Shown: positions 6,398 through 26,600 of the stretch, piece by piece
How the letters are laid out: the number at the start of each line of letters is the position of its first letter
Position numbering within the stretch: the stretch's first letter is position 1
Assembly (NCBI GenBank): GCA_964385615.1
Contig: CAYLPP010000004.1
Span: 39,494-103,493, forward strand
From: an uncultured bacterium
GTDB taxonomy: Bacteria; Omnitrophota; Omnitrophia; Omnitrophales; Aquincolibacteriaceae
DNA length: 64,000 bases
Direction of reading: 5' to 3'
Notes under the pieces: generated by a model
Database searches by the model: none
Seen by the model: the letters and a program-made list of their open reading frames with translations, nothing else
Told to the model about the DNA's origin: nothing
Made by a program: the position numbers and the translations under genes

Positions 6398-6781
6398 ATG
6401 GCGGATTCGGCTAAACCCAGGGTTTTAGTCATTGATGACGAGATTGATGTGCTGTTGATGACCCGGGAGTATTTTGAACTTCGAGGCTATCAGGTTTTTA
6501 CGGCTCTTGACGGCGAGACAGGACTGCTGATTTGCCGTTATGAGAATCCCAAACTGGTTCTGGTGGATTATAAGCTCAAAACCTGTGACGGGGCTGAACT
6601 CATTCGGAGCTTAAGGAAAACATCAAACTCACTGAAAATTTTCGTGATTTCAGCGCATCAAGAAGAGAATATGGAGCGCCGGGTCACCGGGCTGGGAGCG
6701 GACAAGTATTTTGAAAAACCGGTTTCGATTATTGAAGTGGAGCGCGCGGCGCGTCAAATTTTAAATTTTCAGGCTTCCTGA
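6398..6781 (+). CDS. Stand-alone CheY-like response regulator receiver domain
   Basis: Has the receiver hallmarks: VLVIDDE acidic pocket, LVLVDYKL phospho-acceptor Asp, and conserved Lys in YFEKPV. It is 127 aa with no output domain. Confidence 0.8.
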   Translation: MADSAKPRVLVIDDEIDVLLMTREYFELRGYQVFTALDGETGLLICRYENPKLVLVDYKLKTCDGAELIRSLRKTSNSLKIFVISAHQEENMERRVTGLGADKYFEKPVSIIEVERAARQILNFQAS

Positions 6782-8472: not shown

Positions 8473-9533
8473 CGTGTTATTTTTCCGAGGATAACAGCGT
8501 GTTTCGCGCCGGTGCCCGCGGGGCAGTGATTGACTTTGCCTTCCAGCGCCCGAAGAGCGAAAAAAGCGAACGCTGCAGGCTCCTTGGCTTGCGCCTCGAT
8601 ACCTGATTTTTCAATTGAGAGGACCGGAACGGGGGTCAGCAGATTTTTCAGGTGTTTCATCAGCGTAAGATTTAAAGCTCCGCCTCCGCTGACAAGGACT
8701 TCCCGAACCGGCGGGAGAAAAGCCTGGTAACTTTCCTTGATTGAAAACGCCGTGAAAAAAGTCAGGGTCGCCAGGATGTCCGCGGGTTTTTGCTTTTTAA
8801 GAGAAGCGGGAATAAAAGTCTCATTGAAAAGTTCACGGCCCGTGGATTTCGGCGGAAGTTTTTTAAAATAAGTATGCCTGGCCATGGCTTCCGCGGATTT
8901 AAAATCAATCTTACCTCCGGCCGCGATTTGACCGCCCTTGTCATAGTTTTTCTTGAAGTATTTTCGTGCCGCCCAATCCATGAGGCAGTTGCCGGGACCG
9001 GTATCAAAAGCGATCAGTTTTTTTCCGCCGGCCAGGGTGACATTTCCGATACCTCCGATATTTTGCAAAGCGCGCGGTTTATCTCCGAAAAAGAAGTCGT
9101 CAAAAAAGGGAATGAGCGGGGCCCCCTGACCGCCCGCAGCGATATCGCGGGGGCGGAAGTCCGAAACCACAGGGATCCCGGTTCTTTCAGCCAGATAAGA
9201 AGGTTCTCCGAGTTGAAACGTATGAGCGGGTTTTCCGGACCCGGCATGAAACACGGTATGACCGTGAGACCCGATGACTTTAATTTTTCGCCCAGGAAAT
9301 TTTTTCAGGAAACGGACCGCGCATTGAGCGAAATAAAGACCCAGTTCAGCGTTTAAGAGAGAAAGTTCCGGAGTCTTAAGATGGACGGCGCTGTTAATTT
9401 TTTTGGAAAGAGATGAAGGGTAAGGATAGGTGAGACAGCCCAGGGTTTTAAATTTGCGGCCGGTGAAATCGGCCAAGGCCAAAGACACTCCATCGCCGGA
9501 GGTGCCGGACATCAGGCCGAGAGCAAGCGTCAT
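8469..9533 (-). CDS. anmK: Anhydro-N-acetylmuramic acid kinase
   Basis: The N-terminus GLMSGTSGDGVSLAL and the ~354-aa ASKHA-fold size are typical of AnmK. Its start overlaps the murQ stop. Confidence 0.85.
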   Translation of the reverse strand: MTLALGLMSGTSGDGVSLALADFTGRKFKTLGCLTYPYPSSLSKKINSAVHLKTPELSLLNAELGLYFAQCAVRFLKKFPGRKIKVIGSHGHTVFHAGSGKPAHTFQLGEPSYLAERTGIPVVSDFRPRDIAAGGQGAPLIPFFDDFFFGDKPRALQNIGGIGNVTLAGGKKLIAFDTGPGNCLMDWAARKYFKKNYDKGGQIAAGGKIDFKSAEAMARHTYFKKLPPKSTGRELFNETFIPASLKKQKPADILATLTFFTAFSIKESYQAFLPPVREVLVSGGGALNLTLMKHLKNLLTPVPVLSIEKSGIEAQAKEPAAFAFFALRALEGKVNHCPAGTGAKHAVILGKITR

Positions 9534-10432
9534 TTTTCCAGAAGAGCTCTTTTAAGAAAACCGCGTGTTTTTTTCAGCGCGGCAACGGCTTTCGGGCGGG
9601 GCCATTTTTTACGGGCCATTAAAATAGCGACTTTCACCTTCTTGCCGGACTGCTTCAGATAAATTTCCGCCCGGTTTTCAGGAACCTGGCCCAAACGGCT
9701 GATCAGGCGCAGCGCGCGCGCCTCCAGTTTTTTGGACCGGGGCTGGAGGTCAACCATCCAGTTCTGGTAAACCTTTCCCAACTGGACCATGGTGCCGACA
9801 GTCAGCATATTCAGTACCAGTTTGGTCGCGGTGCCCGCTTTTAAACGAGTGGAACCACTGATGACTTCGGGGCCGGTTTTGACGGCGATCACGCAGTCAC
9901 ATAAATTTTTAAGCAGGGAGCCGTCCGCGCAGGTGACCAGAATCGCGGATGCGTTTTTTTCTTTCGCGGCTTGAAGCGCACCTTTAACAAAAGGAGTAAC
10001 CCCGCTTGCGGCAATGCCGACTAGAATATCCCCGGATTTCATTTTTTTGCGGAAAATTTCCAGCCCGTCTTCTAATTTATCTTCAGCGCCTTCCTTAGAA
10101 CGAAAAACCGAACTTTTTCCGCCCGCCATAACCGCCTGAATTAATGAGGGCGGGGTGTTAAAAGTCGGAGGACATTCCGCGGCTTCGAGAACGCCGAGAC
10201 GTCCGCTGGTGCCCGCGCCGGCAAAAAAGACGCGCCCGCCGTTTTTGACGGCTTTCACCATAAGTCCGACGCCCCTGGCAATTTGTTTGCGGGCTTGCGC
10301 GACTTTCAGAGGAACGCTCTGATCTTCACGGCTGATCAGTGTCAGGATCTTTTCTGTGGAAAGGGTGTCGATAGCGCGGGTGCGCGGGTTGGCCTGTTCG
10401 GTCAGCAATTTTCCGTAATTTACTTTTTTCAT
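9530..10432 (-). CDS. murQ: N-acetylmuramic acid 6-phosphate etherase. The start was chosen at MKKVNYG; the tabulated ORF extends to 10450.
   Basis: SIS-domain motifs (FFAGAGTSGRLGVLEAAECPPTF, GSTRLKAGTATKLVLNMLT) align with E. coli MurQ from memory. Confidence 0.85.
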   Translation of the reverse strand: MKKVNYGKLLTEQANPRTRAIDTLSTEKILTLISREDQSVPLKVAQARKQIARGVGLMVKAVKNGGRVFFAGAGTSGRLGVLEAAECPPTFNTPPSLIQAVMAGGKSSVFRSKEGAEDKLEDGLEIFRKKMKSGDILVGIAASGVTPFVKGALQAAKEKNASAILVTCADGSLLKNLCDCVIAVKTGPEVISGSTRLKAGTATKLVLNMLTVGTMVQLGKVYQNWMVDLQPRSKKLEARALRLISRLGQVPENRAEIYLKQSGKKVKVAILMARKKWPRPKAVAALKKTRGFLKRALLEK

Positions 10433-10453
10433 GCGGGGGCAGAATAGCATATA

Positions 10454-11974
10454 ATGCGCGCCATGTCCAAAGACCTCCGGGGCCTAGTCGGCGAACAAAT
10501 GATGATCGGCGTGGCAGGGCCGAAAATGACTTCCGCCATGAGAAAACTGGTCCGGAAAATCAGGCCGGGCGGGATTATTTTCTTCCGCCCGAATTTTGCT
10601 TCCGCCAAAGCTTTCCGTAAACTGGTTTCAGATCTTGAAGACGCCGCGGGTAAAAAATTAGTGACCGCGGTTGATCATGAAGGCGGCCGGGTCATTCATT
10701 TTAATGAGGGAGTTACGGTTTTCCCCGACAATCTGGCTGTCGGCAATACCCGCAAAGAAAAATACGCCGCCCAGCAGGGTGAAATCGAAGCCCTTGAGCT
10801 TAGAAAACTGGGGGTGACTCTGAATTTGGCACCCACCGCTGACGTGCTTCGTGAAAATTTCAGCCCGAATATCGGCATCCGTTCTTACGGTAAAGATCCC
10901 GGTCTGGTTTCCGCTTTTGGAACCGCGCGGATCAAAGCCATGCAGGCCGGGGGAATTTCGGCTTGCGCCAAACATTTCCCGGGGCAGGGGCAGTCGACCC
11001 GCGACGCGCATCTTGACCTGCCGGTTTTATTTTCAACCCATCAGGAAATGGAAAAAATTCACCTGGAGCCCTTTCGCGCGGCAATCAAGGCCGGGGTTCG
11101 CGCCGTGATGTCGTCGCATCCCATTTATCCGAATCTCGACAGAAAAAGACAGCCGGCCACATTTTCAAAAGAGATTATTACCGGACTTTTGCGGAACCGG
11201 CTCGGTTTTCAGGGCGCGGTTTTGAGCGATGATCTGGAAATGGGCGCTCTTAAAGGAATCTGCCCCATTGGTGAATCAGCCGTACGCGCAGCGGAAGCCG
11301 GGCATGATATGGTTTTGATCTGTCATGACGTCAAAGCGCAGGAGGAAGTTTTTGAAAGCCTGCTCAAAGCTTATGAAAGCGGGCGCCTCGATCCCTGGTC
11401 GCTTGAAAAGAGTCTTGTCAGAATTGACGCTCTGCGCCAAGAGGCACCGGCTCGAAGGGATGCTTCTAAAAAACACAATCGGGAATTTTCAGAAGCGCTT
11501 CCCTTGAAGATTTCAGAAGAAGGGGTCCTTCGGTCGGCGTCTCACGCGGGTTTCGGTTTTAAGAAAGGAGAGACGGTTTCGGCGGTCTTCCCGAAACTTT
11601 CCGAATTGGCGGGGCGTATCATGATTGAAAAAGAAATGCTGAACGAAAAAGCATTTGTGCTCGGGCTTTTCAAAGAGCGAGGCTGGAAACCCGGGGAGAT
11701 ACAAGTTCTTCCTTTAAAAATTTCCGGAAAGCTTCAGCCGGAAAAAAAGAAAAAAGCGGGCAGCGCTATTTTCTTTTGTTACGACGCGTATCTGGATGAA
11801 GGCACCCGTGTTTTTTTAAAGGAATTTCAGAAAAATTGGGAGAAGCCGGCCGTGGTTCTTCTGCGCGACCCTTATGACATTGATTTTATCGACAAGAAAA
11901 CCGCGTGCGTGACGGCTTTCGGTTTTCGTGCCTCTCAAATCCGCGCGGCTTTAAATTTATTGGTTCAAAAATGA
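10454..11974 (+). CDS. nagZ: Beta-N-acetylhexosaminidase, GH3 family (NagZ-like), with a C-terminal extension
   Basis: GH3 catalytic-region motifs KHFPGQGQSTRDAHLDLPVL and ILFRPNF. The 506-aa length is longer than the ~340-aa NagZ core. The exact start is uncertain (10454, 10463 or 10496). Confidence 0.8.
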   Translation: MRAMSKDLRGLVGEQMMIGVAGPKMTSAMRKLVRKIRPGGIIFFRPNFASAKAFRKLVSDLEDAAGKKLVTAVDHEGGRVIHFNEGVTVFPDNLAVGNTRKEKYAAQQGEIEALELRKLGVTLNLAPTADVLRENFSPNIGIRSYGKDPGLVSAFGTARIKAMQAGGISACAKHFPGQGQSTRDAHLDLPVLFSTHQEMEKIHLEPFRAAIKAGVRAVMSSHPIYPNLDRKRQPATFSKEIITGLLRNRLGFQGAVLSDDLEMGALKGICPIGESAVRAAEAGHDMVLICHDVKAQEEVFESLLKAYESGRLDPWSLEKSLVRIDALRQEAPARRDASKKHNREFSEALPLKISEEGVLRSASHAGFGFKKGETVSAVFPKLSELAGRIMIEKEMLNEKAFVLGLFKERGWKPGEIQVLPLKISGKLQPEKKKKAGSAIFFCYDAYLDEGTRVFLKEFQKNWEKPAVVLLRDPYDIDFIDKKTACVTAFGFRASQIRAALNLLVQK

Positions 11975-13263
11975 ATAAAAAACAGCTGGGTTTCTGGGAC
12001 TCAGTCGCGATTAACGTGGGGATTGTCATTGGCGTCGGTATTTTCCGCACGCCTGGAGAAATTGCCGGCTATGTGGATTCCACTCCGCTGATTCTGCTGA
12101 CCTGGGCGCTAGGCGGTTTGGTCGCAATGGTGGGCGCGCTTTGCTACGCGGAGCTGGCCGCGTGCTACCCTCAAACCGGCGGAACCTACGTTTACTTAAG
12201 GGAAGCTTACGGCCGGCCTTTCGGGTTTCTTTTCGGCTGGGTGGAATTCGCGGTGATGCGCCCGGGGTCGATCGCGGGGGTTGCTTATATTTTGACGAAT
12301 TACCTGGGGAATTTTGTTCCCGCCGCGGCTTCGCATGAAAAACTTTTCGCCATCCTAATGATTCTTTTCTTTACGGTTCTCAATATCCGCGGGCTTCACG
12401 TGGGGAGCGGAGTGCAGAATATTCTAACGGTTCTTAAAACTGCGTCCATTGTTCTAATGACGGGAATTATTTTTTGGAAGCTTGGGCTTCCGTCAGCCGG
12501 AGGGCCTGTTTTTTCGAGCGTGACCGGAAAAAATCTTATGGGTATCGCACCCGCGCTGATTCCGGTCATGTGGACGTACGGCGGCTGGCATCAGAGCACT
12601 TTTATCGGCGGAGAATTCAGGGACACCAAACGGGATTTGCCCCGATCTTTGGTTATGGGGGCCTTGATCGTCATGGCGCTTTACCTCATGATCAACGCGG
12701 CTTACCTGCGGGTTATGACGCCTGCTGAAACCGCGGGAACGAAAGCGATCGCTTCGGAAATTTTTTCCAGAATTTTTGGAACGCCTGGCGGAACTGCCGT
12801 GACGATTGCTGTTTTAATTTCCGCCGCGGGGGCGCTCAATTCCACGATTCTGACGGGAGGGCACATTCCCTTCGCGGTGGCGGGGGATTATCCCAAGCTT
12901 TCCTGGGTCGCGAAAATTGACGCGAAATTTCATACCCCCCTTCAATCTCTGGCCGTTAACGGGATTTGGGCTTCCGCTCTGGTTCTTTGGGGGAATTTTG
13001 ACCAGCTTCTTTTTTTCTTCGCGTTCGCGAACTGGCTCTTTTTTACGATGGCCGGGATTAGTGTTTTTGTTTTGAGAAAACGCGATCCCGAAAAAGTTAA
13101 AAAATCCATGCCGGGTTACCCCTGGGTCCCCGTGATTTTTATTCTATCTTCAGCGGTTCTTTGCCTGATCACCATCCGTACCGCGCCCTTTGAAAGTCTC
13201 TTCGGCGCCGGTTTAATGCTGTTGGGCTTACCGGTTTATGCTTTATTCAGGAATAGGGAATAG
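11971..13263 (+). CDS. APC-superfamily amino acid/polyamine permease
   Basis: About 12 TM segments with APC-like N-terminal motifs (VAINVGIVIGVGIFRTPGE, GGLVAMVGALCYAELAA). Its ATG overlaps the nagZ TGA (ATGA). Confidence 0.8.
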   Translation: MNKKQLGFWDSVAINVGIVIGVGIFRTPGEIAGYVDSTPLILLTWALGGLVAMVGALCYAELAACYPQTGGTYVYLREAYGRPFGFLFGWVEFAVMRPGSIAGVAYILTNYLGNFVPAAASHEKLFAILMILFFTVLNIRGLHVGSGVQNILTVLKTASIVLMTGIIFWKLGLPSAGGPVFSSVTGKNLMGIAPALIPVMWTYGGWHQSTFIGGEFRDTKRDLPRSLVMGALIVMALYLMINAAYLRVMTPAETAGTKAIASEIFSRIFGTPGGTAVTIAVLISAAGALNSTILTGGHIPFAVAGDYPKLSWVAKIDAKFHTPLQSLAVNGIWASALVLWGNFDQLLFFFAFANWLFFTMAGISVFVLRKRDPEKVKKSMPGYPWVPVIFILSSAVLCLITIRTAPFESLFGAGLMLLGLPVYALFRNRE

Positions 13264-13447: not shown

Positions 13448-16400
13448 ATGCCTCGATTTTTAAGAGCCGCCGCGTTTACGGTTCTTCCTCTATTTATATG
13501 GAGTCAGATTAGCTGGGCCAACCCGCTTTTGGCGCAGTCCGGGGGAGAAGTGCGCCTGGAGACTCCGCAGATATCTGATTTTTCAATTCCGGAAAATCTG
13601 GGGAAAATACAGTTTGAGCATCCAGGATCCGGTCCTGCCATCATTCATATTCAAACGGCCCACGGAAATTATGGCGCAGAACAAAAAATAAGAGACCTGC
13701 TGGAGTATTTAAAAAAACGTTACGGCTTCAAACTTCTCTTAGTCGAAGGAACCGCTTCAAAACTTGAACCGGAACGCTTGAGTTTTTTTGGAAAAGAGAA
13801 ATCGCTGAGCCTTGAGACGGCTGAAAAATTGACTCGTGAGGCCCTCATGAAAGGTTCTGAGCTTTTTTTGATGGAAGAACCCGGCATGGAAGCTTACGGC
13901 ATTGAAAACCGGGAAGCGTATGTATCCAATGGTGAAGCGTTTCGGGCGGTGCTTACGGAACAAAAGGCTTCCGGGAAATTCCTCAGCGGGATGGATGAGC
14001 AGATTAACCGGTTATTGGCGGTTTTTACAGAGTCGTCTTTCCGCGGTTTTTTGTCCGAAATGCAGCGTTTTGAATCCGGGCAGGGCTCGCTCGCGGACTG
14101 GCTGGGATATCTTAAAAGTGTTACCGCAAAAAATTCAGGTTTAAACCTTGAAGACCCGGCTAATCAATTTGACTGGCCGATGCTGACCCGCTTCTTTAAA
14201 CTACAGGAACTTGAAAAGAAATATCATTCCGGCTCTTTCCGCGAGGAGCTTCCCGGCTTCCTGGCGCGGCTCCAGGGAATAAGTCCGGAATTATCCTCTC
14301 AGGCTGAAAAGTTATTTTCCGCGGAAAATATGCGGGTCCATCTGCCGTATCCTCAGACCGGTGAATTATTTGAGGCTATCGCGCGTGTTTTGCCTGAAGA
14401 CTTCAGCATTGACGCTTACCCGAATGTGAAAATCCGTGCGGCTTTTTTGATCCTCCAAAGTGAATTAAGCGCGGAAATGCTCATGAGAGAAACCGAAAAG
14501 CTTTCGGAGCTTGCTTCGGACGGGCTTGCCCGGACGGAAGATCAGAGGAAGATCTATGGGTTTTACCGGGACTATCTTTTGCTGACGAAACTTTTCGCAC
14601 TGAATGTCACGCCTGAGGAATACGGCTTAATTTTAAAACGCCGTGAAGCGCTGAACCCGGAAGCTTTGGCCGAAGAATTCCGGAGGCTGAACTCGGGAGG
14701 GCGTGTCCGTGATTTGAAGTTCGAACATTTGGCTGAAATATGTTCGCTATTTGAAAAATCGCTCGAATTTTATAAAGGGGCTAAAGAGCGTGACGCTTTA
14801 ATGATTCAGGGGGTTGAGCGGAGGTTAAAGGAAACCGGAGCGGACAAGGCAGTGGTGATTACCGGCGGGTTTCACGCGGAACCGTTTCAGGATTATTTTT
14901 CTTCTCATGGGTTTAATTATGCGCGGATCATGCCGGAGATTACAGTTTTAGGCGGAAGGGATGCCTATGTGGAAGCCGTTCTGCAGAGCCAGCCCCGCCT
15001 TTTTTTCGCATCGACCCGTGAAGTGCCGTTTGCTTTCGCTTCACCGGAAGCTCTTTTGGAAATGGATAGAAATGCTTATCTGGGCTCGCTCGACCGGCTG
15101 GTACGGGCTGAGCTTGAAACGGCTGAAGATTCCGGGGACTTAAAAAATATTGAGAAAGCGAATTCAAACGGCCGTTTATTCGGGATTCAATATCAAGCCG
15201 GTTCAAAAAATGTGACTGTGAGCGCGGATGGAAAAAAATTCACGGTTCCGGTTTCACTTCGTCTGAATTTAAATCAGACTCGGCTCCTTCAGCGTTCCGA
15301 GTTGAGGGTGGACGTTGAGAAACTTAAAAACGCCGCGACTAAAGATGAAGCGCTGCGTGATCTTTTGAGCACTCTGGTAAGCGGAAGCGATGACAGGCAG
15401 CGTTTGTCGGCCTATCGGATCCTCACGGGAGTTTTTAGACGGGGCTCGCATAGAGATGAGATTTATCAGCATTTTACGGATAATGACCGCCGAAAAATCC
15501 GGGAGCTGATGTTCCACGCTTTTTTTGATCCCGATCACCGGATCCGTCAAGACCTGGGGTACAACCTTTACGGAAGCCTCAAAGATTTGGCTTCAAATGA
15601 TGATCTTATGGATTATCTTGCCAGGGCCGACGTTTATCAGCCGGGGCATTTAAATGAAGCCGAGGAATTTGTTTCCTGGGAAGTTTCCGGTCAGGAACCT
15701 CGTTTGAGCCCTGAGGAAACTTACAGCCTGGCCACGCAGAAATACATGGGTAAAGAAGCCGTTCTTTTCGCGATTTCCCGGCGCATCCATTTTTCTCACG
15801 GGAATCCTGACGAGCCGTACTTTCAGGGAAAAATACAGGAGGCCGACGGGGATTTCCGGGCCGCTTTGAAGTGGTTTAATCCGGAAATTCTTCAAGACTC
15901 AAAATTCCCGATCGCGCGAGCGATCCACGCGGCTCTTTTTGAATTTGCGCGTGAGGAAATGGTCGAGAATCATATTCCCGCTTCCTTTCTTATTCCGGAT
16001 CAAAAGACGCATTCGGTGAAAAACTGGAGGCTTGAAATGATCCGGTGCGTGATGGGAGATGCCTACACTCCGTGGATTTCGGCGATGGTGAGTCTCTATG
16101 CTTCGTTTATCGCAGAGCATCAAGCGGTTTTAGGGCGCGAAAGTATTGGACTCAGCTTTCAGGAAATCCGGAATCGCAAGACCGGTACGGAAAAACCGAT
16201 TTTGTATGGACCGGTTAAGGCAGTTCTGGCGGGCGATGAGAATAAATTGGCGTATATCGCCGCCCGGAGTCTAGAGCATAAGAGTTCCAGCGGGGCCGAC
16301 ATCCGGGAAGGGTTGACTGTTCTGGAAGGATACCGCGAACTGCTCGCGGAAAATGGTTTTGACTTCGGCGACGCGATTCGAGTTTCAATCCGAAAAATGG

Positions 16401-19400
16401 GCACGCTTTCTAATTTAATAAACCGGAATTTCCTGAGCGCTTCGCGAGATGAAATAATGGGACCTCTTTTGGAGATTCAAGAAGATTTGAGAAGACTTTT
16501 AGAGCTCCTGACGGCGGAGGAACCGAAAATTCGGGGACGCAGTGAGGAGCTGATGCGGGGCAGTGACAAAAGACAGGGTGCCCGGCTTCGGAAAAATTTC
16601 GAAGTTCTCACGGAGCAAACCCGGCTTCTTAAGGTGTATCTTGATGACCGGATTGCGTTCGCGAACAAAAGCTCTGAACCCGCGCGTACGGAAGTGGTGC
16701 CGGTTCTGGGCTTAATTCAGTCACGGCATGGTCAGAAACTGGTTATTGAGACTTCAGATCTTTCCGGGGTTTCCGCCGCTATCTCCCGCGTCCGGCTTTT
16801 CTCGATTCTCAATAATCTTGTTTCGAACGCAATTGAGGCCCAGGCGGAGTATTCTCAGGAACCGGTAACTGTTCGAGTTTCCTTGGAAAAAGAGGGGATT
16901 CTTTTTGAAGTTCAAGATCACGGACCTGGTTTTCCTTCGGATTATTTTCAGCCCGGTGAAAATGGAATCCGCTTATTTGATCTGGATGAGAGGAAAGGGC
17001 TGGGATTGGCTGAAGTCTGGGCGACTACGGCCCTGGCTTCAGGGTTTCTGGATGTCATTTCCAAAAGCGGGAAAGGCTCCACAATCGGCGTGACAATTCC
17101 TCGCTCAGAGGTACGCACTCAAACATCCGAAGCCCCAGTCATTCAGGATTTAATCATTCCCGGTGTTTCGGCTAAAACACTTGGGGTTTCACCTTTGAGC
17201 CGGATTAAGGTGTGGAGGCGTAAACCGGTGCGGGGGAATCCTTCTCTGGTCCGGAGTAATGACAATCTTTTAGTGGTTGAAGCAAAAATGGCGAATGAAC
17301 TGAAAGCTTTAGACCAGATATGGGCGCGTATCGTGCTGCGTCTTGATAATCCGTCCGCGGAAGAAGTGGAAGGGATGCGGGTTATGGCGGAGGTCATTGA
17401 ACGCGTAAAAGTCCGTATCCGGCTTGAACAGAGGAAAAGCCAGGAAATTTTACGTGAGATTATGGGGTTTGAAGGAAGCGGGGGTATTTCAAACCCTAAA
17501 GCCCGCGAAATCGTTGAGAAAGAACTTCTTCCTGACTTGGAAGATCGTGATGAATTTCTTTTTTTGAGCGCTGCCGAAGAAGTCAAAGGCGTTTCGCTTG
17601 AAAAAGCCCGCACCGCGATTACCCGGCGGTATCAGACCTTGGCCATGATTAAGCTCTACCAAATTATTTTAAATCTGCCTTATGGGTTCCACACAGAAAG
17701 CGATGACGTGATTCAAATGCAAAGAAACCTGGCCGCATCCCGTAAGGATGAACTGGAAGCTGAAGTCCCGAGGATTTTAAGCGCGATTGAAAAAGGATCC
17801 AGCCCTCGTGCCGCCGTTCAGGAATCCATCGAACGTATCAAGATCAGAATCCGGGATCTTGACCGGGAGATTAAAGAGACTCCCAGCAGTGAGGACCGGA
17901 CGTCACTGAAAACACTGCGGACAATCGCGGTGGAACAGATCGGGTACCTTGAAAAAGTGGGAACCTCTTACGATGTTTACGAATATCTTTACGAGCCTCG
18001 TGATCCGGAGGATGTTAGAAAAGAAAAAATTAGCAACGAAACAAAACGTCATGTTCAGCTTGCCCGGACGGCGGGCGATGAATTCCCGGAGCTTAAACGG
18101 CGGGGATGGTCTCTGAAGACGATTTGGTTTTATGTGTTTTCATCAACAGCCTGGGTTTTTGGCCTGCATTTTTGGGCTGTTCGGTTTTTCCGTAAGAATC
18201 CTGATTTTTTTCTGAATTGGTTTAACGCTTACATCCGCAACGAGATTTCCAAAGGCCGGCCGGTTCAATACGCCGCTGCCAAGTTTTTCTATGAAAACCG
18301 TGAGCTGGCCGCGAAAAGGGATTCGCTGTTCTGGCCTTTTTTGATGCGTTATTACGATCTGGCTGAATATGGTCACGCCCGCAGAGAATCTGGTGACCCG
18401 GTCATCGTTTTTGCCGAAGAGATTCACGACGAATCGGATTATAACCGCCTGATGGCGAGTTCCCGGGGTCACGGGAAAATCGCGGCGATTGTCGCGCCTA
18501 AAATGGAAGGGGAAATGAGAATCCCTCACTGGTTTATTTACGCTAAGAAGGAAAATATTCTCGTTCTGACTTCTCTGGATTTAAGAAAAGCGGGGATCCG
18601 GCTGGAGGATCTTGAAAAGGCTGATGGGGAAGAGTACGAGGGGATGGTGGACGCGAAACGGGGGGTTCTGGTGATTAATCCCTCCGTGGAAACTCAGCTG
18701 GAGTGGCAGAGTAAGGGAGAAACTTACGAGCTCCAGGATAAATATTATTGGAGCCGCGCGCGTAAGCAGACCATTTTTAATCTGACTCAGATTGAGTACC
18801 TCGCGGATGAAACCAGCCTTGAAGCCATTGAATGGATGGATGGTCAACCCTCCCTGCTTTACCGCTCCGGCGCGAGCGGGGTTGGTTTATTCCGTCTCGA
18901 AGAACTTTTGACCGCTCAGATGGACCGCGCGGGTATTGAGCGCGATCCGGCGCGTATTCAGGCCGCGGGGTCGGAAATTCTTGGTTATCCGGAATTTGAA
19001 AATGGCCAGGTTTTTACTATCAGACTTAATGATGTGAGCGTGGACAAAAGACCTCAATTCCTTGTGGATGGCGCTAAAGGTTTGCGCGGATGGGATATGG
19101 ATGAAATTATCCGGACGATGTCCGGAGCCCGTTTTTACTTGAACCGGGAAAAGTATCCGGAATTTTATGAGTTCGGGAAAATGCAGTTAAAAGCCATTTT
19201 CGCGGCTCATTTACGCAAAGGTATCCGGCGTTCAGGGATTAAGATTTTGATTTCTGATGTCCGGAATGCTTCAGAAATCGAGGCGCTTGAAGCTTTGCTT
19301 TTGGACGCGAAAAAAGAATTTATCGAAGAGGTTATCATCGGTACTTCTGCGGACCTTTCCGCGAGACTTCACTACGAGGATATGACCCAGCTTCTCTCGA

Positions 19401-22400
19401 CACTCAATCCGGATGAAATCAGCGATGCGATTGAAAGAATCCCGATTGGTTACATGTATGAAGATACCACGGCGATTGAAAATGAACGGGAAGCCATGAC
19501 CCGAAAAGTAAAGGAATTGTCAAAAACCCATTGGCGCGAAAGGTTTTTTGGAATTGGTTCCAATGATTTGAGCAAGTCGATTAATAAAGACCGCATGGGC
19601 GGAACGATGGCGCTGGATGAGTTGAGTCCTCTCCTCGTTCGGGATATCTGGCTCGCCGCCAAATCGGCTCAAAGAGAAAATATTCCGGTTAACCTGGAAG
19701 GGGAGTTGGGCGGGTCCAAACCGATGGCTTTTATTCTTCTGGCTTTGCAGGAACTCTCTGGAGGGGTGAGGATCACTCCAGTCGCCGCGACCGCGCAAAT
19801 TCCTGAATTGAAGGAGCTGGTTCGTGAGCATGTAGAGATAAGTGATTTTACGGAACCCTTGCGGGGGCAAAAATATTCCTTGGCAGAGCTTTTAGAGAAG
19901 ATCAGGGCTCCTTCTTTTGACTTGAGTCAGTTCCCGCTGGAGGACTGGAAATCAATTTTAAATCAGCTGGTTTCTACCGTAGAGGCCAGAATTTTCGGAA
20001 GCGATGATTTTAATCATTTTGCCCAGCAGATTTCCGACGGAGTTGCTCCGGAAGACGCGGAAATTCAAGCTCCGAAAGAAGCTGGATATTCCCGTGTGGA
20101 AAGTTTGGATGACGGTAGAATCCGGGAGGATAGATTATACGCGGTCGGCGCCTATGCTTTTCATACAACGCCCAACCAAAAAATTATGGTATGGCTCGCG
20201 GCGCATAGAAATGTGCGCGCGGTTTACGGTAAAGGGGACGCCGACCCAATAACCGAGCTTTATGAGTTTAATTTTATCAATATTCTCACGGTCAGAATTC
20301 TCCGCAAGCAGAAAATGTTTTTTAGGGTTGAAGGCCCTGAAGCCGAGGTGAGGGAATTTTATGAATTAATCGATACGATGGTGGAATATGACGGCATGAC
20401 CAGCACATTTTCGCCCGCGTCCGGACGCTCTGAATTAAGAGTGAAGGCCGCTCCTCAGCTTCCCTGGGATGAAATTGAAAAAGCCCAGCAGGATTTTCGC
20501 CTAAGGCTCGCGGATCCGTCTTTAAAAGACGCGGTATTGCGGGAAATTTGGAATAACGTTCTTAACGGTCCGGATGAGCTCACCAGGGCCGCGAGCTATT
20601 ACATTCTCGCGGACTTCTTTACCCAGCCTGATTTATTTGCGGGAATTATCGGGAACAAGGAAAGGCTTTTTACGGGGCGGGTGCTCTTAAGTTCTTATTT
20701 CGACCCTTCAAAAAATATTCGAATGCCTTTAGCCAGCAACAACGCCGCGGAAGAGGTTTATGAGGCGGTCCCGGATAAAGCTTTGCTTGAACTGCTGAAT
20801 CAGACGGACGCTTATCCTTTTTTGAGAGTTAACGGCAAAAATGAATTGGAAACGATTAGCACGGGGGCTGACCCCCGCCTGGGTCCCGGTGCCGTGTTCA
20901 GTCCGGAGCTTCGGGCTTATTTCGCGAAAGAAGCGATTTTGTTCACTCTGTACCGCCGTTTAGCTAACAGTTCCAGCGGAACCCCGAAATTCATTCAATC
21001 TGAAATCGCGGCTGCACAGGCGGACCTTGATAAAGCTCAAACGGCTCATGATCCTTCTATTCTGGAAAATTCAAAATCTCCGATTTTAAGGGCCGTAGGC
21101 GCCGTGCTTTTTGAGTACCTGCGGGACGAGTACGTTGAGAATGGGGTTAAAAATGGACAAAGACTGATCGGCGAAAGTAATTGGGGGATCGCGGGCCGTT
21201 GGCGGTTAAATATGATTCAGGAAATTCTTGGGCCCGCTAACAAGGCCGCCGTGAGAGAAATAGCATGGGCCTATCTGGAATTTATTCGCCAGCACGAAGC
21301 TCATCTGGGGCCCGAGACCAGAGGTTTTGGCAGGGGCCGTTTAAGCCGCTCTGAATTGAGAAATGAAGAGCAGGGTAAATCGTTTGTTGAATTTCAGCGA
21401 TTCAGCCGGCTCCCGCGGATTGAGTCCGCGAAACTGCCGTTAGGATATTATATTCAATCCTCCGGACTCAATATTGCCGTGGTGGATGATCACCATAAAG
21501 TGGTGCCGATTTGGCGGGAAGCCCACGCACGGGGAATTATTCCGAAAAATTCTTCGCTGGTGCATATTGACGCGCACACGGATGATCTCTTTGTGCCGGA
21601 CAGTCTTAACGGTCTTGTTCCGCTCCCCTCGGGGATTTTAGACGGGGCTGTTTTGGCGGACTATTTGGAGCAAGTTAAACGGGGGATCGCGAAATATTAC
21701 CGGATTGGAACTTTTATCGCGCCGGAAGTTTTGGCCGGTCTAATTGATCCTGAAAAATGGTTCTTTATTAACTCGTTATCCAATCTTAGAAGCGGTCCGG
21801 GAAGATTTCAATTTCAATGGCGCGGAATTGGAGGTATCGAGATGCTTACGGCGGCTTATCCTTTCGCGGGTACTTTGGATCGAATTTTTAAGAATAATCA
21901 GCCGGATATCGTGAATTTCGACATTGATGTAATGGGAACGGAGGTTCACGTTTTCCGGAGCCTCTTCCGCGTTAAACTCTTCCGGTTTTTGGGAGATCAA
22001 AAAGCAGATTCAGCCCAGGAAATCCTCGATTTGCTTTCAAGAGATCCGGAACTGAAAGCGAAAGGTTTTAATTTAGCCGGCGGAAGATATTCAGAAATCG
22101 TGGAAGCCTATTTCCGCTCTGACAAGAAAACGCCGGTTTTGATTGAGCTGGAAAAGAGTTTGGCAGTGGAAACCGTTTTAGCTCAATGGTTTCCGGTTTT
22201 GCTTCCGCTTCTCTCTAGAGCTAAGCTGATTACGATTGCGACCAGCCCGGGCTATATCGACCAGGATGACGCTTTAAGAATTGTTAACCGTCTTCTTCCC
22301 GAATTAGAACAGTATAAGATTAGCGGAGTTTTGACCGTGTTTCCAGAAAGGGAGAGAGAGGAAGGCGCGGGAGAACTTCCTTTTGAGCAAAGAGCCCGCG

Positions 22401-23467
22401 CCGCTTTTGAGTCGATTCCCGCGGAAATTCGCTCAAAAATTCCGGATATTACTTTCGCGCAGGCTGAAGAATACGCGCGGAACTCAATTTCCGCGGATGA
22501 ACTGAAAGCAAGAGCGGAGGAAGATTTTTCTGAGGCTTGGCATCTGCCGTACGCGATTGATTTTGCCGGCCGGATTTCGCCCCGGGCTCTGGTTTATGCA
22601 CGGCTTGGAGAATTGTTTTTTAATGGAGGTAAACCGGATTCGGACGCGGCGCTGGCGGTTTTGCTGGGTCTTTACAAACGTAACGATCTTCCGCCGGAGG
22701 AAAAGGAAAATTTGAACCGGTTTGCCGCTTCTTTGGACCGCGAGCGGGATTTACCAGGGATCGTCGCGAAAAGTGTCCGCGATTTTAATCGGGTTATGAA
22801 ACGCTCGGAAATCCGGGTTTCAGGCGCGCAAACTCTTTCCCCGCTGTTTTTTTCCCGTCTGCTGGATTTGAGGTTTGATTTTATTCCGTTTTCCTGGTTT
22901 GAGATTTACGGCAGACAGGAACTTGAAAATACGTTTAACCGCTTGAAGAAAAACAGCCGGGCTCCAGGGGGAGCTTGGGCGCCGTTTACGGCCGATCAGC
23001 GCAATCAGCTGGGCGGTGTTCTGGGGATCCGCGGAAAATCAGAACCGCCGAACGTTCTGATTGTTGACCGCGTGGCGGGTGTGGACCGCGGATTGCTTTC
23101 TGTGCTGGGGGAAGCGGGACAAGGGGTTCGGGTTATTTTAGCGGGAGCTTCTGACGCGGATCGGAAGATTGTGGAAGCTTTGAACCGAGAGTTAAAAGCG
23201 CGGAAAAGGCCGGAAGTGCTTCTAGCCCAAAACGCGGAAGAAGCCCGCCGGATAGCTGATAAAGCGGTGAATGGAAAAGCGGTTATGCGGGCTTATCTGG
23301 ACGCCTCTGAAATTGGAAAATGGGGTGAAGCTTTGAGGAAGCAAAAAGCGGAAGTCGTCCCCATGACTCCGCGGATGTACCAAAATCTGACGGAAGGTTT
23401 TGCCGCCGCGGCTGCCCGGTTGACCGCCTTTTTTGAGATCAGGAAGCGCATCAGCTCTGCAGCATAG
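13448..23467 (+). CDS. Giant multidomain protein (3339 aa), called giant 1 below. Its parts are a signal peptide, a TraB/GumN/Tiki-like N-domain, a GHKL ATPase domain, one hydrophobic helix, an Enzyme-I-like PEP-utilizing module, an arginase-fold-like signature, and a C-terminal domain shared with the next gene.
   Basis: A single uninterrupted 10-kb ORF preceded by a GGAG ribosome-binding site. Details are in the findings. Confidence 0.85.
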   Translation: MPRFLRAAAFTVLPLFIWSQISWANPLLAQSGGEVRLETPQISDFSIPENLGKIQFEHPGSGPAIIHIQTAHGNYGAEQKIRDLLEYLKKRYGFKLLLVEGTASKLEPERLSFFGKEKSLSLETAEKLTREALMKGSELFLMEEPGMEAYGIENREAYVSNGEAFRAVLTEQKASGKFLSGMDEQINRLLAVFTESSFRGFLSEMQRFESGQGSLADWLGYLKSVTAKNSGLNLEDPANQFDWPMLTRFFKLQELEKKYHSGSFREELPGFLARLQGISPELSSQAEKLFSAENMRVHLPYPQTGELFEAIARVLPEDFSIDAYPNVKIRAAFLILQSELSAEMLMRETEKLSELASDGLARTEDQRKIYGFYRDYLLLTKLFALNVTPEEYGLILKRREALNPEALAEEFRRLNSGGRVRDLKFEHLAEICSLFEKSLEFYKGAKERDALMIQGVERRLKETGADKAVVITGGFHAEPFQDYFSSHGFNYARIMPEITVLGGRDAYVEAVLQSQPRLFFASTREVPFAFASPEALLEMDRNAYLGSLDRLVRAELETAEDSGDLKNIEKANSNGRLFGIQYQAGSKNVTVSADGKKFTVPVSLRLNLNQTRLLQRSELRVDVEKLKNAATKDEALRDLLSTLVSGSDDRQRLSAYRILTGVFRRGSHRDEIYQHFTDNDRRKIRELMFHAFFDPDHRIRQDLGYNLYGSLKDLASNDDLMDYLARADVYQPGHLNEAEEFVSWEVSGQEPRLSPEETYSLATQKYMGKEAVLFAISRRIHFSHGNPDEPYFQGKIQEADGDFRAALKWFNPEILQDSKFPIARAIHAALFEFAREEMVENHIPASFLIPDQKTHSVKNWRLEMIRCVMGDAYTPWISAMVSLYASFIAEHQAVLGRESIGLSFQEIRNRKTGTEKPILYGPVKAVLAGDENKLAYIAARSLEHKSSSGADIREGLTVLEGYRELLAENGFDFGDAIRVSIRKMGTLSNLINRNFLSASRDEIMGPLLEIQEDLRRLLELLTAEEPKIRGRSEELMRGSDKRQGARLRKNFEVLTEQTRLLKVYLDDRIAFANKSSEPARTEVVPVLGLIQSRHGQKLVIETSDLSGVSAAISRVRLFSILNNLVSNAIEAQAEYSQEPVTVRVSLEKEGILFEVQDHGPGFPSDYFQPGENGIRLFDLDERKGLGLAEVWATTALASGFLDVISKSGKGSTIGVTIPRSEVRTQTSEAPVIQDLIIPGVSAKTLGVSPLSRIKVWRRKPVRGNPSLVRSNDNLLVVEAKMANELKALDQIWARIVLRLDNPSAEEVEGMRVMAEVIERVKVRIRLEQRKSQEILREIMGFEGSGGISNPKAREIVEKELLPDLEDRDEFLFLSAAEEVKGVSLEKARTAITRRYQTLAMIKLYQIILNLPYGFHTESDDVIQMQRNLAASRKDELEAEVPRILSAIEKGSSPRAAVQESIERIKIRIRDLDREIKETPSSEDRTSLKTLRTIAVEQIGYLEKVGTSYDVYEYLYEPRDPEDVRKEKISNETKRHVQLARTAGDEFPELKRRGWSLKTIWFYVFSSTAWVFGLHFWAVRFFRKNPDFFLNWFNAYIRNEISKGRPVQYAAAKFFYENRELAAKRDSLFWPFLMRYYDLAEYGHARRESGDPVIVFAEEIHDESDYNRLMASSRGHGKIAAIVAPKMEGEMRIPHWFIYAKKENILVLTSLDLRKAGIRLEDLEKADGEEYEGMVDAKRGVLVINPSVETQLEWQSKGETYELQDKYYWSRARKQTIFNLTQIEYLADETSLEAIEWMDGQPSLLYRSGASGVGLFRLEELLTAQMDRAGIERDPARIQAAGSEILGYPEFENGQVFTIRLNDVSVDKRPQFLVDGAKGLRGWDMDEIIRTMSGARFYLNREKYPEFYEFGKMQLKAIFAAHLRKGIRRSGIKILISDVRNASEIEALEALLLDAKKEFIEEVIIGTSADLSARLHYEDMTQLLSTLNPDEISDAIERIPIGYMYEDTTAIENEREAMTRKVKELSKTHWRERFFGIGSNDLSKSINKDRMGGTMALDELSPLLVRDIWLAAKSAQRENIPVNLEGELGGSKPMAFILLALQELSGGVRITPVAATAQIPELKELVREHVEISDFTEPLRGQKYSLAELLEKIRAPSFDLSQFPLEDWKSILNQLVSTVEARIFGSDDFNHFAQQISDGVAPEDAEIQAPKEAGYSRVESLDDGRIREDRLYAVGAYAFHTTPNQKIMVWLAAHRNVRAVYGKGDADPITELYEFNFINILTVRILRKQKMFFRVEGPEAEVREFYELIDTMVEYDGMTSTFSPASGRSELRVKAAPQLPWDEIEKAQQDFRLRLADPSLKDAVLREIWNNVLNGPDELTRAASYYILADFFTQPDLFAGIIGNKERLFTGRVLLSSYFDPSKNIRMPLASNNAAEEVYEAVPDKALLELLNQTDAYPFLRVNGKNELETISTGADPRLGPGAVFSPELRAYFAKEAILFTLYRRLANSSSGTPKFIQSEIAAAQADLDKAQTAHDPSILENSKSPILRAVGAVLFEYLRDEYVENGVKNGQRLIGESNWGIAGRWRLNMIQEILGPANKAAVREIAWAYLEFIRQHEAHLGPETRGFGRGRLSRSELRNEEQGKSFVEFQRFSRLPRIESAKLPLGYYIQSSGLNIAVVDDHHKVVPIWREAHARGIIPKNSSLVHIDAHTDDLFVPDSLNGLVPLPSGILDGAVLADYLEQVKRGIAKYYRIGTFIAPEVLAGLIDPEKWFFINSLSNLRSGPGRFQFQWRGIGGIEMLTAAYPFAGTLDRIFKNNQPDIVNFDIDVMGTEVHVFRSLFRVKLFRFLGDQKADSAQEILDLLSRDPELKAKGFNLAGGRYSEIVEAYFRSDKKTPVLIELEKSLAVETVLAQWFPVLLPLLSRAKLITIATSPGYIDQDDALRIVNRLLPELEQYKISGVLTVFPEREREEGAGELPFEQRARAAFESIPAEIRSKIPDITFAQAEEYARNSISADELKARAEEDFSEAWHLPYAIDFAGRISPRALVYARLGELFFNGGKPDSDAALAVLLGLYKRNDLPPEEKENLNRFAASLDRERDLPGIVAKSVRDFNRVMKRSEIRVSGAQTLSPLFFSRLLDLRFDFIPFSWFEIYGRQELENTFNRLKKNSRAPGGAWAPFTADQRNQLGGVLGIRGKSEPPNVLIVDRVAGVDRGLLSVLGEAGQGVRVILAGASDADRKIVEALNRELKARKRPEVLLAQNAEEARRIADKAVNGKAVMRAYLDASEIGKWGEALRKQKAEVVPMTPRMYQNLTEGFAAAAARLTAFFEIRKRISSAA

Positions 23468-23692: not shown

Positions 23693-26600
23693 ATGAAAAA
23701 ACGGGACGGCAGACTCGTAAGGAAAACAAGCGCGGCCATTACGGCCGCGTGTTTTATCGCCCAACAGATTTTTGCACCCGCTGTTTCTTCTGCCTCCGAA
23801 GTTCAGGAAAGCAGTCTCCGAGTTCCCTCAATTGAAATTCCCGCTGAAATAGGTTCCCTTGAAACCTCAGGGATTTTAGAAGATCAAAAGCCCATGATTA
23901 TTCAGGTTCAGGACGCTCACGGAAATTATGACGCTCAGAAAAATATTCAAAAAATTCTCCAGCATCTTACCGCCTATGAAGGCGTCGACCTTGTTTTGCT
24001 CGAAGGCGGAAAAGGCCCGCTTCATCCCGAAATCCTGAATTTTTTACCAAGACGTCCTGATTTGAATCTGGAAATCGCCGACCGTCTGGCTCAGCAATCT
24101 GAACTGAGCGGAGCGGAGATTTTTCTTCTAGACCGGTATTTGGCGGGGAAGACTCTTGCCGCATTTGGGATTGAAAACGCTCCGGCTTACCGGGAGAACC
24201 GTGAAGCTTTTCAAAAAGTTCTGCGCGCCCGGGAGCAAAGCGGAAATTTCTTAAAAGATATGGAAATGCAGATTGACCGCCTGACGGCGCCTCATGTGAA
24301 TCCTCAGCTCAAAAATTTTCTGCGCAGTTATGAAGCTTATGAATCACGGCAGATGGATTTGACGGTATGGCTCCGCCAGCTTGAGGAGCTTTCACGCAAG
24401 CACTTGGGCTTGGACCTGGATTTAGCCGGAAGTCAGAAAGACTGGCCGATGCTCACCCGGTATTCCCGCCTGCGTAAACTCGAACCCAAACTTGATAAAA
24501 CGCGTGTTGAAAACGACAAAACGGCGATGCTTCAAAAACTTAGGTCGCTCAATGTTTCTAAAGCGGTGATTGAGGCTTTTGACAATGCCGTGAATATGGC
24601 CCCGGATAACGGTGTTCAGGCTTCTCAAATTGTGAAAGCTGTTGAGAGTGTGATGGAAGCGGTTCCTTCCGATTTTTCTTTTGAACCCTATGGGTTCCTG
24701 AAAGCTTGGATTCAGTTTGAAGTTTTTCAGCGTGAGCTTAATGGAGAAGCTTTATTCGCGGAGGTCAGCAAACTGGAAGATCTTCTCTCAAATCAGCTGG
24801 CCAGAACCGAAACCGAGAAAAAACTTCTGGCCCTCTTTAAAGATTACCGTGCTCTAAACAAACTTTTCGCTCTCGAACTTACCCGGGAAGATTATCAGAA
24901 TATCCAGCGTTCTGAGGACACGATGACGCCTTCGGCCATCGCCGGACGGTTTTCAGCGGTCAATAAAAACAAGCAGGTCCGCGACACGCAGTTTATTCAT
25001 TTAAAAGAACTCGACGCTCTTTATTCGCTCGCGCTTAATTTTTACCGCGGAGCGCTTGACCGCGATCATTTGATGGCGGACAACATTTTGGAAACTATGC
25101 AGGCGCAGGGGAAGCGCCGGGCGGTTGTTGTGACCGGCGGGTTTCATTCAGAAGGAATGCAGGAATACTTTCAATCCAAGGGTTTTTCTTACGCGCGGAT
25201 CAGCCCGCGAATTCAGGAGCTGGGTGACAACAAAGCTTATATCCGGGCAATGCTGGATGAAGATGTTGAAATTAAAAAATCGCAGGTCGCGGATATCCTG
25301 GTGGAACAATTCGGGGAAGTTCAGCTGGAGCTGGGGAGCGCCAGCCACTTAACCCGCAAGGACGCAGTCATTTACCGGGTCATGCGGGATGTCGTTGAAC
25401 ACGCGGGCGCGCGCTCAGAAATGCGCGGACGGCGTGATTGGATTTACGGTATCGGGCTTGTGACCGCGATCGGTTTAGCGGCTTATGCCGCGTTTAGACC
25501 CTTGCCTGTCAATCCGCCGGCTCAGCAGGATGTGCCTGCAAAAGTCGCGGAGCTAGAACCTAAACCGGTTCAGCAGGAGAAGAAGGTTGAAGAAAAAAAG
25601 CCCGCTCCGATTCCTGAAGTGGTGCCGCTGCCTCAGCCTGAAAAGAAAGCTCCAATTGTTAAAATAGATGAGCCTGTGATTGATAAGGCCGAAACGCTCC
25701 GTGTTTGGGGTAAGCGGGAAGTGCCTAAAATTTCTCCTGAAAAACTCGAGGCTCTTGTCACTTCAGATTTAAACGCGGAACAGATCCGGTATTTGCTGAA
25801 ATACGATAAGCGGTCGAAACAGCTTGAGTCCGCGGGAGCGGGAAAAAACACGGTTTGGAGTATTGAAGCCGGTGTCCGTCATATTACAGAAGCTAAGCTG
25901 AATAAGGCGGAGAAGGCGGAGTTTGAAGCGACGAAAGGCGCGATTGAAGAGTTTTTGAAAGAACTGAAAGAAGACGGCGCTTTTAAAGAAGGGCAGACCG
26001 CTCTGGATCTTTATTACTTTTTCTTCCGCCCGCTTTTTGTGGTGCAGGACCGTCATGGAGCTGCCGCCGCGAAGTGGGTGGTAGAAATGCAGATTGCTTA
26101 CTTTACGGTTAAGAATAATTTTGAGATCAACCTGAAAGGGTTAACTGAAAAATCTTTGAGCGCGACTTATATCCGCACCATTGAGGACTATCTGAATGCT
26201 GATGAGTGGAAAGCTAACGGCGGGGAACGGTTAAAAATCGCGTTCGCGCTTTCTATTTTATACGCGCAGATGGATAATTATAAACAGGTGATTTGGCGTA
26301 ATCACGACTGGTCAAAATTCAAAAGGCTTGAGCTTCCGGCTGAACTCGAACTCTACCGCTTTTACGGCGAAAAAGGGCTCGGCAAAGATGCGTTGGAACG
26401 CATGGAGCTCGAACTTAAAGCTGAAATCCGCGGCCCCAGACCCCTGGGAAAAAATAATGCCTGGAACAACCGCCCGAATCTCCCCCAACGTTATGTCGGC
26501 CTTTACGAAGAAGTTTATTCCAGGACCTGGTATTACTCGACCATGCACCGTGAGCGTTTTTACCGGCCCGGAGATTTCCGCCTCGGAGCGACTCCGAATC

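Follow-up and report, generated by a model that had tools for sequence, protein, structure and literature searches.

A histidine-kinase core without its acceptor histidine in a giant modular Omnitrophota protein punctuated by RSExR motifs

What does a histidine-kinase-like ATP-binding domain do in the middle of a protein of more than three thousand residues that begins like an exported one, and can it still act as a kinase? This question is raised by a 64,000-nucleotide (nt) stretch of DNA, called the window in the following, from an uncultured bacterium of the Omnitrophota (family Aquincolibacteriaceae; assembly GCA_964385615.1, contig CAYLPP010000004.1, positions 39,494 to 103,493 of the forward strand). 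The kinase-like module is hosted by giant open reading frame (ORF) 1, located at window positions 13448-23467 (+ strand, as are all features of the giant ORFs described here) and comprising 10,020 nt and 3,339 amino acids (aa); a whole-protein homologue search found it in NCBI at 100 % identity as P0001, on a 215-kb contig. A first-pass annotation, made from the letters of the window, had placed a GHKL-type ATPase domain at 16790-17110 and regarded it as a possible non-canonical GHKL module. The domain itself was borne out, and the peptide given for it is the translation found in frame in the 3,339-aa ORF. We consider it probable, with room for doubt, that it forms part of a pseudo-histidine kinase, i.e. 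a core of dimerization/histidine-phosphotransfer (DHp) and catalytic/ATP-binding (CA) domains with a lost acceptor residue, inside a presumably exported modular Omnitrophota protein.

The CA domain comprises aa 1091-1218 (16718-17101), as delimited by Pfam, PDB and hhalign. The Pfam family HATPase_c (PF02518) covers aa 1115-1219; its score is 46.2 bits (E 6.9e-12) for the whole protein and 50.7 bits (E 2.8e-13) for the sub-sequence, the curated gathering cut-off being 26.4 bits, whereas the matches of HATPase_c_2 (19-24 bits vs. a cut-off of 27.4) and HATPase_c_5 are sub-threshold. All 14 of 14 matches obtained by phmmer against PDB are sensor histidine kinases, including HK853, WalK/YycG, ZraS, KinB, FixL fusions, and PhoR. 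NCBIfam gave sub-threshold partial matches alone; those over the CA region are kinase models, and the matches of the MtrB and PhoR models extend beyond the CA domain by about 100-140 residues on its upstream side. The ATP-binding motifs are an N box (N1123-L-V-S-N1127-A-I-E, 16814-16837), a G1 box (D1157-H-G-P-G1161, 16916-16930), a G2 box (G1184-L-G1186-L1187-A, 16997-17011), and a G3 box (G1208-K-G1210-S-T, 17069-17083). The first three had been recognized in the first-pass annotation, and their residues N1127, D1157/G1159/G1161, and G1184/G1186/L1187 indeed occupy invariant columns of 14 kinases; the fourth had been described as a Gly-rich lid, a label that has to be replaced. When the query was added to the alignment of these kinases, 13 of the 14 invariant columns were found to be kept (N1123, N1127, A1128, D1157, G1159, G1161, F1177, G1184, G1186, L1187, G1199, G1210, and P1218); the single lost column is a histidine, reference H168 mapping to D1001. 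The N box, NAIEA, contains a Glu in place of the Lys of many kinases and resembles that of the FixL/NtrB subgroup, consistent with the FixL matches in PDB. These motifs and matches identify the stretch in question as a histidine-kinase CA domain of the standard kind rather than an exotic GHKL ATPase. A non-kinase GHKL ATPase similar to MutL, GyrB, Hsp90, or MORC is hardly conceivable: the GHKL motifs are common to the entire superfamily, but the significant matches in PDB and NCBIfam are sensor kinases without exception, and the sequence has a DHp hairpin, which is specific to kinases, as well as an F box (F1177) and a G3 box.

Upstream of the CA domain, alignments and an AlphaFold2 model place a helical linker and a DHp-like helical hairpin (aa 951-1090, 16298-16717), in which an H-box-like motif, FLSASRDEIMGPL, is located at canonical spacing. 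This degenerate H box, N-F-L-S-A-S-R-D-E-I-M-G-P-L (aa 994-1007, 16427-16468), was aligned in three independent ways: by MAFFT with 21 kinases drawn from an exhaustive search of representative sequences, which puts Asp1001 in the phospho-histidine column; by a profile comparison in hhalign with 14 canonical kinases (probability 99.3 %, E 7.7e-21, query positions 44-271 including the H-box region); and by a local hidden Markov model (HMM) built from canonical kinases, which scores 94 bits over aa 992-1222 with the same H-box placement. All three set FLSASR-D-EIMGPL on FLAxvS-H-ELRTPL, and the distance from the acceptor column to the Mg-binding Asn is 126 residues, the canonical DHp-CA spacing. 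The first-pass annotation had seen no canonical H box upstream, which holds in that the histidine is absent and Asp1001 stands in its column, but a degenerate H box is present at the regular distance, and the divergent dimerization helices for which a search had been proposed are found by all three alignments. The H box has also diverged at -1 (S to R), +3 (R to M), and +4 (T/N to G). HisKA kinases need the Thr or Asn at +4 of their H-E-x-x-T/N motif for phosphatase activity, and this position is occupied by Gly1005 (sequence D-E-I-M-G), while the Glu adjoining the acceptor position (E1002) is retained. No histidine occurs anywhere in aa 951-1093, the two found in aa 951-1225 (H1094 and H1158) both belonging to the CA domain. 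An alignment of 182 DHp domains, taken from the 150 nearest relatives, has the histidine in 174 cases and lacks it in eight, giant ORF 1 being the only one with Asp. A single-sequence AlphaFold2 model of aa 951-1225 shows helices at aa 952-967, 974-994, 1000-1037, and 1041-1074 (predicted local distance difference test, pLDDT, 76-93), of which the two DHp helices, aa 1000-1037 and 1041-1074, reach 84-93. The intact CA motifs and the Asp and Gly in the DHp domain together lead us to describe aa ~994-1218 as a transmitter core that is, by sequence, complete with DHp hairpin and CA domain, and His-less, with a DHp domain predicted to be catalytically dead.

Asp1001 is encoded by GAT (16448-16450), and a single base separates this codon from CAT; since the sequence comes from a metagenome assembly, an ordinary histidine kinase with an assembly or sequencing error has to be considered. 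We regard such an error as very improbable. The simultaneous changes at -1, +3, and +4 of the H box make a lone error at Asp1001 unlikely, and no cognate regulator was found nearby in the 18 neighboring ORFs scanned. Moreover, the nearest relative of the module, P0121, likewise lacks histidine in the aligned acceptor column (MAFFT). P0121 is a protein of 2,109 aa which has a signal-peptide-like start and combines Fic/DOC, nucleotidyltransferase-head, and CA domains; it has neither the N-terminal module nor the RSExR motifs that are described below for giant ORF 1.

If the histidine is indeed lost, the intact CA domain might phosphorylate something else, namely Ser, Thr, or Tyr, a histidine located elsewhere in a CheA-like separation, or Asp1001 itself. 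Mitochondrial PDK/BCKDK, SpoIIAB/RsbW, plant subfamily-2 ethylene receptors, and phytochromes provide parallels for Ser/Thr/Tyr kinases of this kind. All ATP motifs are kept (N1127, D1157xGxG1161, G1184xG1186L, GKGST), a pattern expected from selection for catalysis rather than for scaffolding, E1002 beside the acceptor position is retained, and P0121 pairs a similar His-less CA domain with the protein-modifying Fic and nucleotidyltransferase domains. On the other hand, the module clusters with HisKA-type kinases and not with the HATPase_c_2 family of Ser kinases, and no acceptor domain was found. Two sites had been picked by eye, one around aa 2237 (AFHTTPNQKIM) resembling the His15 site of HPr and one around aa 1691 (RIPHWFIYAKKENILVLT) resembling the swivel histidine of enzyme I; both were rejected, as neither gave a Pfam or PDB profile match even at E<=10, and a fused phosphorelay partner is therefore unsupported. 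Giant ORFs 1 and 2 (the latter being a tandem paralogue, see below) contain no Response_reg match, and the 18 neighboring ORFs scanned include no gene for a receiver or histidine-phosphotransfer (HPt) protein. An active non-canonical kinase thus appears to us an unlikely explanation, albeit one to be taken seriously.

According to the favored pseudo-histidine kinase reading, the module would still dimerize and would probably bind ATP, as we infer from the conservation of its motifs, and it might hydrolyze ATP as well. With Asp1001 and Gly1005 in its DHp domain, it would neither autophosphorylate on histidine nor feed a response regulator, and it may act, as DivL does, as a pseudo-kinase, here a nucleotide-dependent binding or regulatory unit; a kinase with a substrate other than histidine is less likely. 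With HisKA-type kinases (Thermotoga HK853, FixL, NtrB-like proteins) it shares the order DHp-CA, the canonical spacing, and the N, G1, F, G2, and G3 boxes; it differs from them in that the acceptor His is replaced by Asp and the Thr/Asn by Gly, in that neither a membrane-spanning sensor architecture belonging to the module nor a partner regulator was found, and in being embedded in a presumably exported protein of 3,339 aa. Another comparison is with DivL of Caulobacter, which also combines a kinase fold, a substituted acceptor, and a retained CA domain, and in which Tyr replaces His and the output domains have been repurposed as a binding or sensing surface (PMC4211667). Unlike DivL, which is cytoplasmic, membrane-anchored, and partnered by DivK~P/CckA, the module of giant ORF 1 has Asp and is part of a modular, putatively exported giant.

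Several points weigh against this reading. In the AlphaFold2 model of aa 951-1225, the CA domain is predicted with low confidence (pLDDT <50), and a Foldseek comparison of this model with PDB gave no match at E<=0.001, only generic helical bundles being returned, so that it is uninformative. When 1.84 billion representatives were searched exhaustively by phmmer, only 10 hits fell below 1e-10, the best of them with 37 % identity, and a word-index search with the kinase module alone gave no match; by these searches the module is orphan-like, without a close orthologue. With a functional signal peptide, the module would be located beyond the cytoplasm, in surroundings normally devoid of ATP, and an extracytoplasmic role for ATP would be puzzling unless the cytoplasm of another cell is reached or the topology prediction is wrong. 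Finally, Asp1001 might accept phosphate as an acyl-phosphate, for which we know of no precedent with Asp in the histidine column.

The orphan-like character of the module would also suit a decaying relic, i.e. a captured kinase fragment that drifts neutrally in a fast-evolving modular gene and has no function of its own, as would the loss of both the catalytic histidine and the phosphatase residue and the rapid turnover of cargo between paralogues. A further domain of giant ORF 1 points in the same direction: the enzyme-I-like phosphoenolpyruvate (PEP)-binding domain (Pfam PEP-utilizers_C, 18863-19843) retains GVGLFRLE and FFGIGSNDL, and the enzyme I motif MCGEMAGD reads LEGELGGS, with Glu in the column of the active-site Cys, because of which this second cargo domain may be catalytically altered. 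We nevertheless hold a relic to be improbable, since 13 of 14 invariant positions have been preserved, along with most of the near-invariant ones, at an identity of <=~37 % to any kinase, and since the 10-kb ORF has no stop codon and is under selection as a whole. The loss of two catalytic residues of the DHp domain, with every CA motif kept, is the pattern of a repurposed pseudo-kinase rather than of random decay. The module shows that at least some cargo domains of such giants retain motifs for ligand binding and have lost catalytic residues.

The protein in which the module resides belongs to a family. The search with the whole ORF gave the protein itself (P0001) and 140 further hits, and the family counts given here rest on 120 listed homologues. 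These are 1,860-5,841 aa in length, and every source name given is Candidatus Omnitrophica/Omnitrophota. A scan of GTDB species representatives with a 5-sequence alignment revealed 65 loci, with several paralogues per genome; the named loci are all from Omnitrophota except for two contigs of only 3-4 kb that had been binned with Planctomycetales and Elusimicrobiota. The homologues share the first ~500-600 aa alone (aa ~5-530 align, with 23-51 % identity), and the downstream parts differ. According to precomputed Pfam matches, the latter are made up of normally cytoplasmic enzymes and regulators that are unrelated between members, namely triose-phosphate isomerase, phosphoglucose isomerase, fructose bisphosphatase, glutamate dehydrogenase, phosphoglucomutase, hexokinase, and UDP-glucose dehydrogenase, and also SecA, receiver domains, sigma-factor regions, HEAT repeats, and HATPase_c. 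Kinase modules with the canonical histidine are carried by P0044 and P0053, while P0052, P0100, and P0109 have CA domains alone. A tandem paralogue, giant ORF 2 (23693-30937, 2,414 aa), follows giant ORF 1 in the window, and its N-terminal module is 36.5 % identical to that of giant ORF 1.

The conserved N-terminus begins with a signal-peptide-like segment which, by its sequence layout, is of the Sec type (MPRFLR followed by AAAFTVLPLFIWSQISWA, 13448-13522). This layout, in which K/R residues abound at the start, a conserved T/S/N-Q lies within the hydrophobic core, and the end is AxA-like, recurs throughout the family and suggests export. It is followed by the N-module (aa 40-530, 13565-15037), which is common to all 120 homologues. 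Its AlphaFold2 model, calculated from a 16-member alignment (pLDDT 86.7; predicted template modeling score, pTM, 0.78), has an alpha/beta core of the erythromycin-esterase/ChaN/TraB/Tiki type with a large helical insertion; H72, E100-G101, E153, R448, and T472-G-G-F-H476 are invariant in 16 diverse members, and among them H72, E100, R448, and H476 are candidates for the His/Glu/Arg/His catalytic constellation of Ere and Tiki proteins. The structural neighbors are the Bacillus 'succinoglycan biosynthesis' proteins 2rad and 2qgm, the type III effector HopBA1, EreC, a TraB-family protein, and ChaN. No PDB match was obtained by sequence, and the Pfam matches are all sub-threshold (Cofac_haem_bdg in 3 of 16 members with a best E of 2.7e-4, DUF5682, and DUF5694). 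We consider the model-based assignment to the EreA/ChaN/TraB/Tiki-like fold to be solid, and the N-module to be a candidate protease, esterase, or binding domain.

Downstream of the N-module, giant ORF 1 is punctuated by a short motif of the type R-S-E-[LIVM]-R, which occurs as RSELR at aa 616-620 (15293-15307), as RSEVR at aa 1219-1223 (17102-17116), as RSELR at aa 2327-2331 (20426-20440) and aa 2634-2638 (21347-21361), and as RSEIR at aa 3119-3123 (22802-22816). A motif scan located RSEMR, RSELR, and RSEIR in giant ORF 2 (25412-25426, 28778-28792, and 30200-30214, respectively). In giant ORF 1 every boundary that can be drawn coincides with a motif, i.e. after the N-module, directly after the last CA strand (GVTIP-RSEVR), at both edges of the paralogue of the aa 621-950 domain, and 38 residues before the UPF0489 domain. 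The first copy marks the left edge of the kinase-containing module, which by these boundaries is a 603-aa unit (aa 621-1223) that begins with an unannotated domain of ~330 aa (aa 621-950, 15308-16297) and ends with the kinase-like domains. The unannotated domain, a possible input domain upstream of the DHp hairpin, has no match in Pfam, NCBIfam, or PDB, and a paralogous copy of it (31 % identity, E 4e-35) is found at aa 2353-2643 of the same protein. The two copies (15308-16297 and 20441-21361) differ in their surroundings: one precedes the kinase-like domains, and the other stands alone between two RSELR motifs.

Within the 120 family proteins, RSE[LIVM]R was observed 404 times, compared with 2.4 expected from composition (~170-fold). 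The first 500 residues, i.e. the N-modules, contain three copies alone; in 41 of the 79 proteins that bear the motif, it first appears at aa 500-720, and the spacing has a median of 334 aa (interquartile range 166-610). The flanks are unconserved, with small residues before and an acidic bias after the motif. Variants are enriched as well, by the same comparison with composition: RSEAR (124 observed vs. 0.9 expected; e.g. P0004, P0012, P0015, P0039, and P0061), RAExR (158 vs. 13.5; e.g. P0058, P0079, and P0088), and A[AS]SLG (47 vs. 2.5; P0070, P0074, P0076-P0078, P0094, P0098, and P0106), the last being almost confined to members without RSE[LIVM]R. Such variant punctuation suggests lineage-specific co-evolution with whatever recognizes the motif. 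The eight copies in the window differ in their synonymous codons at every position, which rules out a DNA-level repeat or recombination site; because the synonymous codons vary and the motif is found in no window ORF other than the two giant ones, selection acts at the level of the peptide and not of the DNA. A separate observation concerns the sequence that follows the signal-peptide-like segment, which in giant ORF 1 is G-E-V-R-L (aa 33-37, 13544-13558). At this place [SP]-E-V-[KR] occurs in 15 of the 35 closest relatives, compared with 9 % of random internal windows; it resembles the core of the punctuation motif, and the enrichment is absent from more distant members.

The RSE[LIVM]R motifs are thus candidate processing sites. 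In the favored reading, the module aa 621-1223 is one cargo of a presumably exported protein made up of a Sec-type signal peptide, an N-module with a hydrolase fold, and variable enzyme-like modules delimited by R-S-E-[LIVM]-R. Taken further, and proposed here only tentatively, RSE[LIVM]R, RSEAR, RAExR, and A[AS]SLG would all be processing sites, and the proteins would be bacterial polyproteins that are cut after Sec export by the N-module hydrolase or by a dedicated protease; this would free a lineage-specific cocktail of modules, including the His-less kinase, which would act outside the producer, possibly on or within the cells of a host or prey. A function of the modules in another cell is speculation; it would resolve the puzzle of ATP-dependent domains beyond the cytoplasm and would fit the Fic-containing P0121, the effector-like structural neighbors of the N-module, and the predatory or parasitic lifestyle proposed for Omnitrophota (PMC10066038).

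No literature report of an RSE[LIVM]R punctuation motif and nothing relevant on Omnitrophica polyproteins was found. Giant proteins of this phylum have been described as 'Archaeovorins' or 'multi-enzyme' giants (bioRxiv 10.1101/2023.11.21.568195; 10.64898/2026.06.07.730766), and these likewise combine a signal peptide with a tiling of unrelated, normally cytoplasmic domains, of which HATPase_c, PEP-utilizing domains, HEAT repeats, phosphoglucomutase, and receiver domains are shared with the present family. HATPase_c is among their top 20 domains (bioRxiv 10.1101/2023.11.21.568195, Fig. S1 legend) and is found in 136 of 779 long Omnitrophota proteins (bioRxiv 10.64898/2026.06.07.730766), and ATP-dependent domains with a predicted extracellular location are a paradox noted for these larger proteins, too. 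The present family differs from them by its size of 1,900-5,800 aa, its EreA/ChaN/TraB/Tiki-like start, and its RSExR punctuation; the two giant ORFs of the window, with 3,339 and 2,414 aa, fall below the threshold of >=10,000 aa used in the published surveys. Whether and where Omnitrophota giants are cut was stated to be unknown (bioRxiv 10.1101/2023.11.21.568195), and there is no mention of a motif, linker, processing, Tiki, or TraB in bioRxiv 10.64898/2026.06.07.730766.

As both the occurrence of HATPase_c in Omnitrophota giants and His-less pseudo-kinases are already known, the kinase-like domain alone adds modestly to this picture. New are the DHp-CA unit with Asp at the acceptor position, the subfamily of 2-6 kaa (thousand amino acids) headed by a Tiki/TraB/EreA-like module, and the RSExR punctuation. 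The latter gives concrete candidate boundaries, which can be used to split giants into units for structure prediction, and makes the question of giant-protein processing and its sites directly testable, with the Tiki/TraB/EreA-like N-module as a candidate enzyme for such processing. A well-known arrangement with which to compare it is that of MARTX-type toxins, whose effector domains are freed by autoprocessing and whose RRSP effector has a Tiki-like fold. Unlike in MARTX toxins, no cysteine protease domain, RTX repeats, or type I secretion genes were seen for giant ORF 1, RSExR cleavage is hypothetical, and the cargo resembles housekeeping enzymes and not known toxins.

Some further features of the two ORFs and their surroundings deserve mention. 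An aromatic and hydrophobic stretch of giant ORF 1 (aa 1555-1581, 18110-18190) had been taken in the first-pass annotation for the only internal hydrophobic helix, a description that does not hold, as aa 2905-2923 are more hydrophobic (mean Kyte-Doolittle value of 1.54 vs. 1.15, over 19 residues). It may be a membrane helix, but this is uncertain because of the weak hydrophobicity and because the poorly conserved homologous stretch of P0002 contains Arg and Asp. The UPF0489 domain (aa 2676-2773, 21473-21766, 39 bits) weakly resembles peptide arginases of the FlmR/OhkR type (NCBIfam NF052474, 22.6 bits, far below the cut-off). Directly upstream of the giant ORFs lies a cell-wall recycling cluster (6769-13263) with genes for a sodium:solute symporter, the anhydro-MurNAc kinase AnmK, a MurQ/GKRP-like SIS protein, and a GH3 NagZ-like hydrolase, followed by an amino-acid permease. 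In giant ORF 2, aa 1429-1505 (27977-28207) show a weak, sub-threshold likeness to sigma-70 region 4/extracytoplasmic function (ECF) sigma factors (TIGR02937, 20.8 bits vs. a cut-off of 42.9), and a true ECF sigma factor gene is located at 40352-40963.

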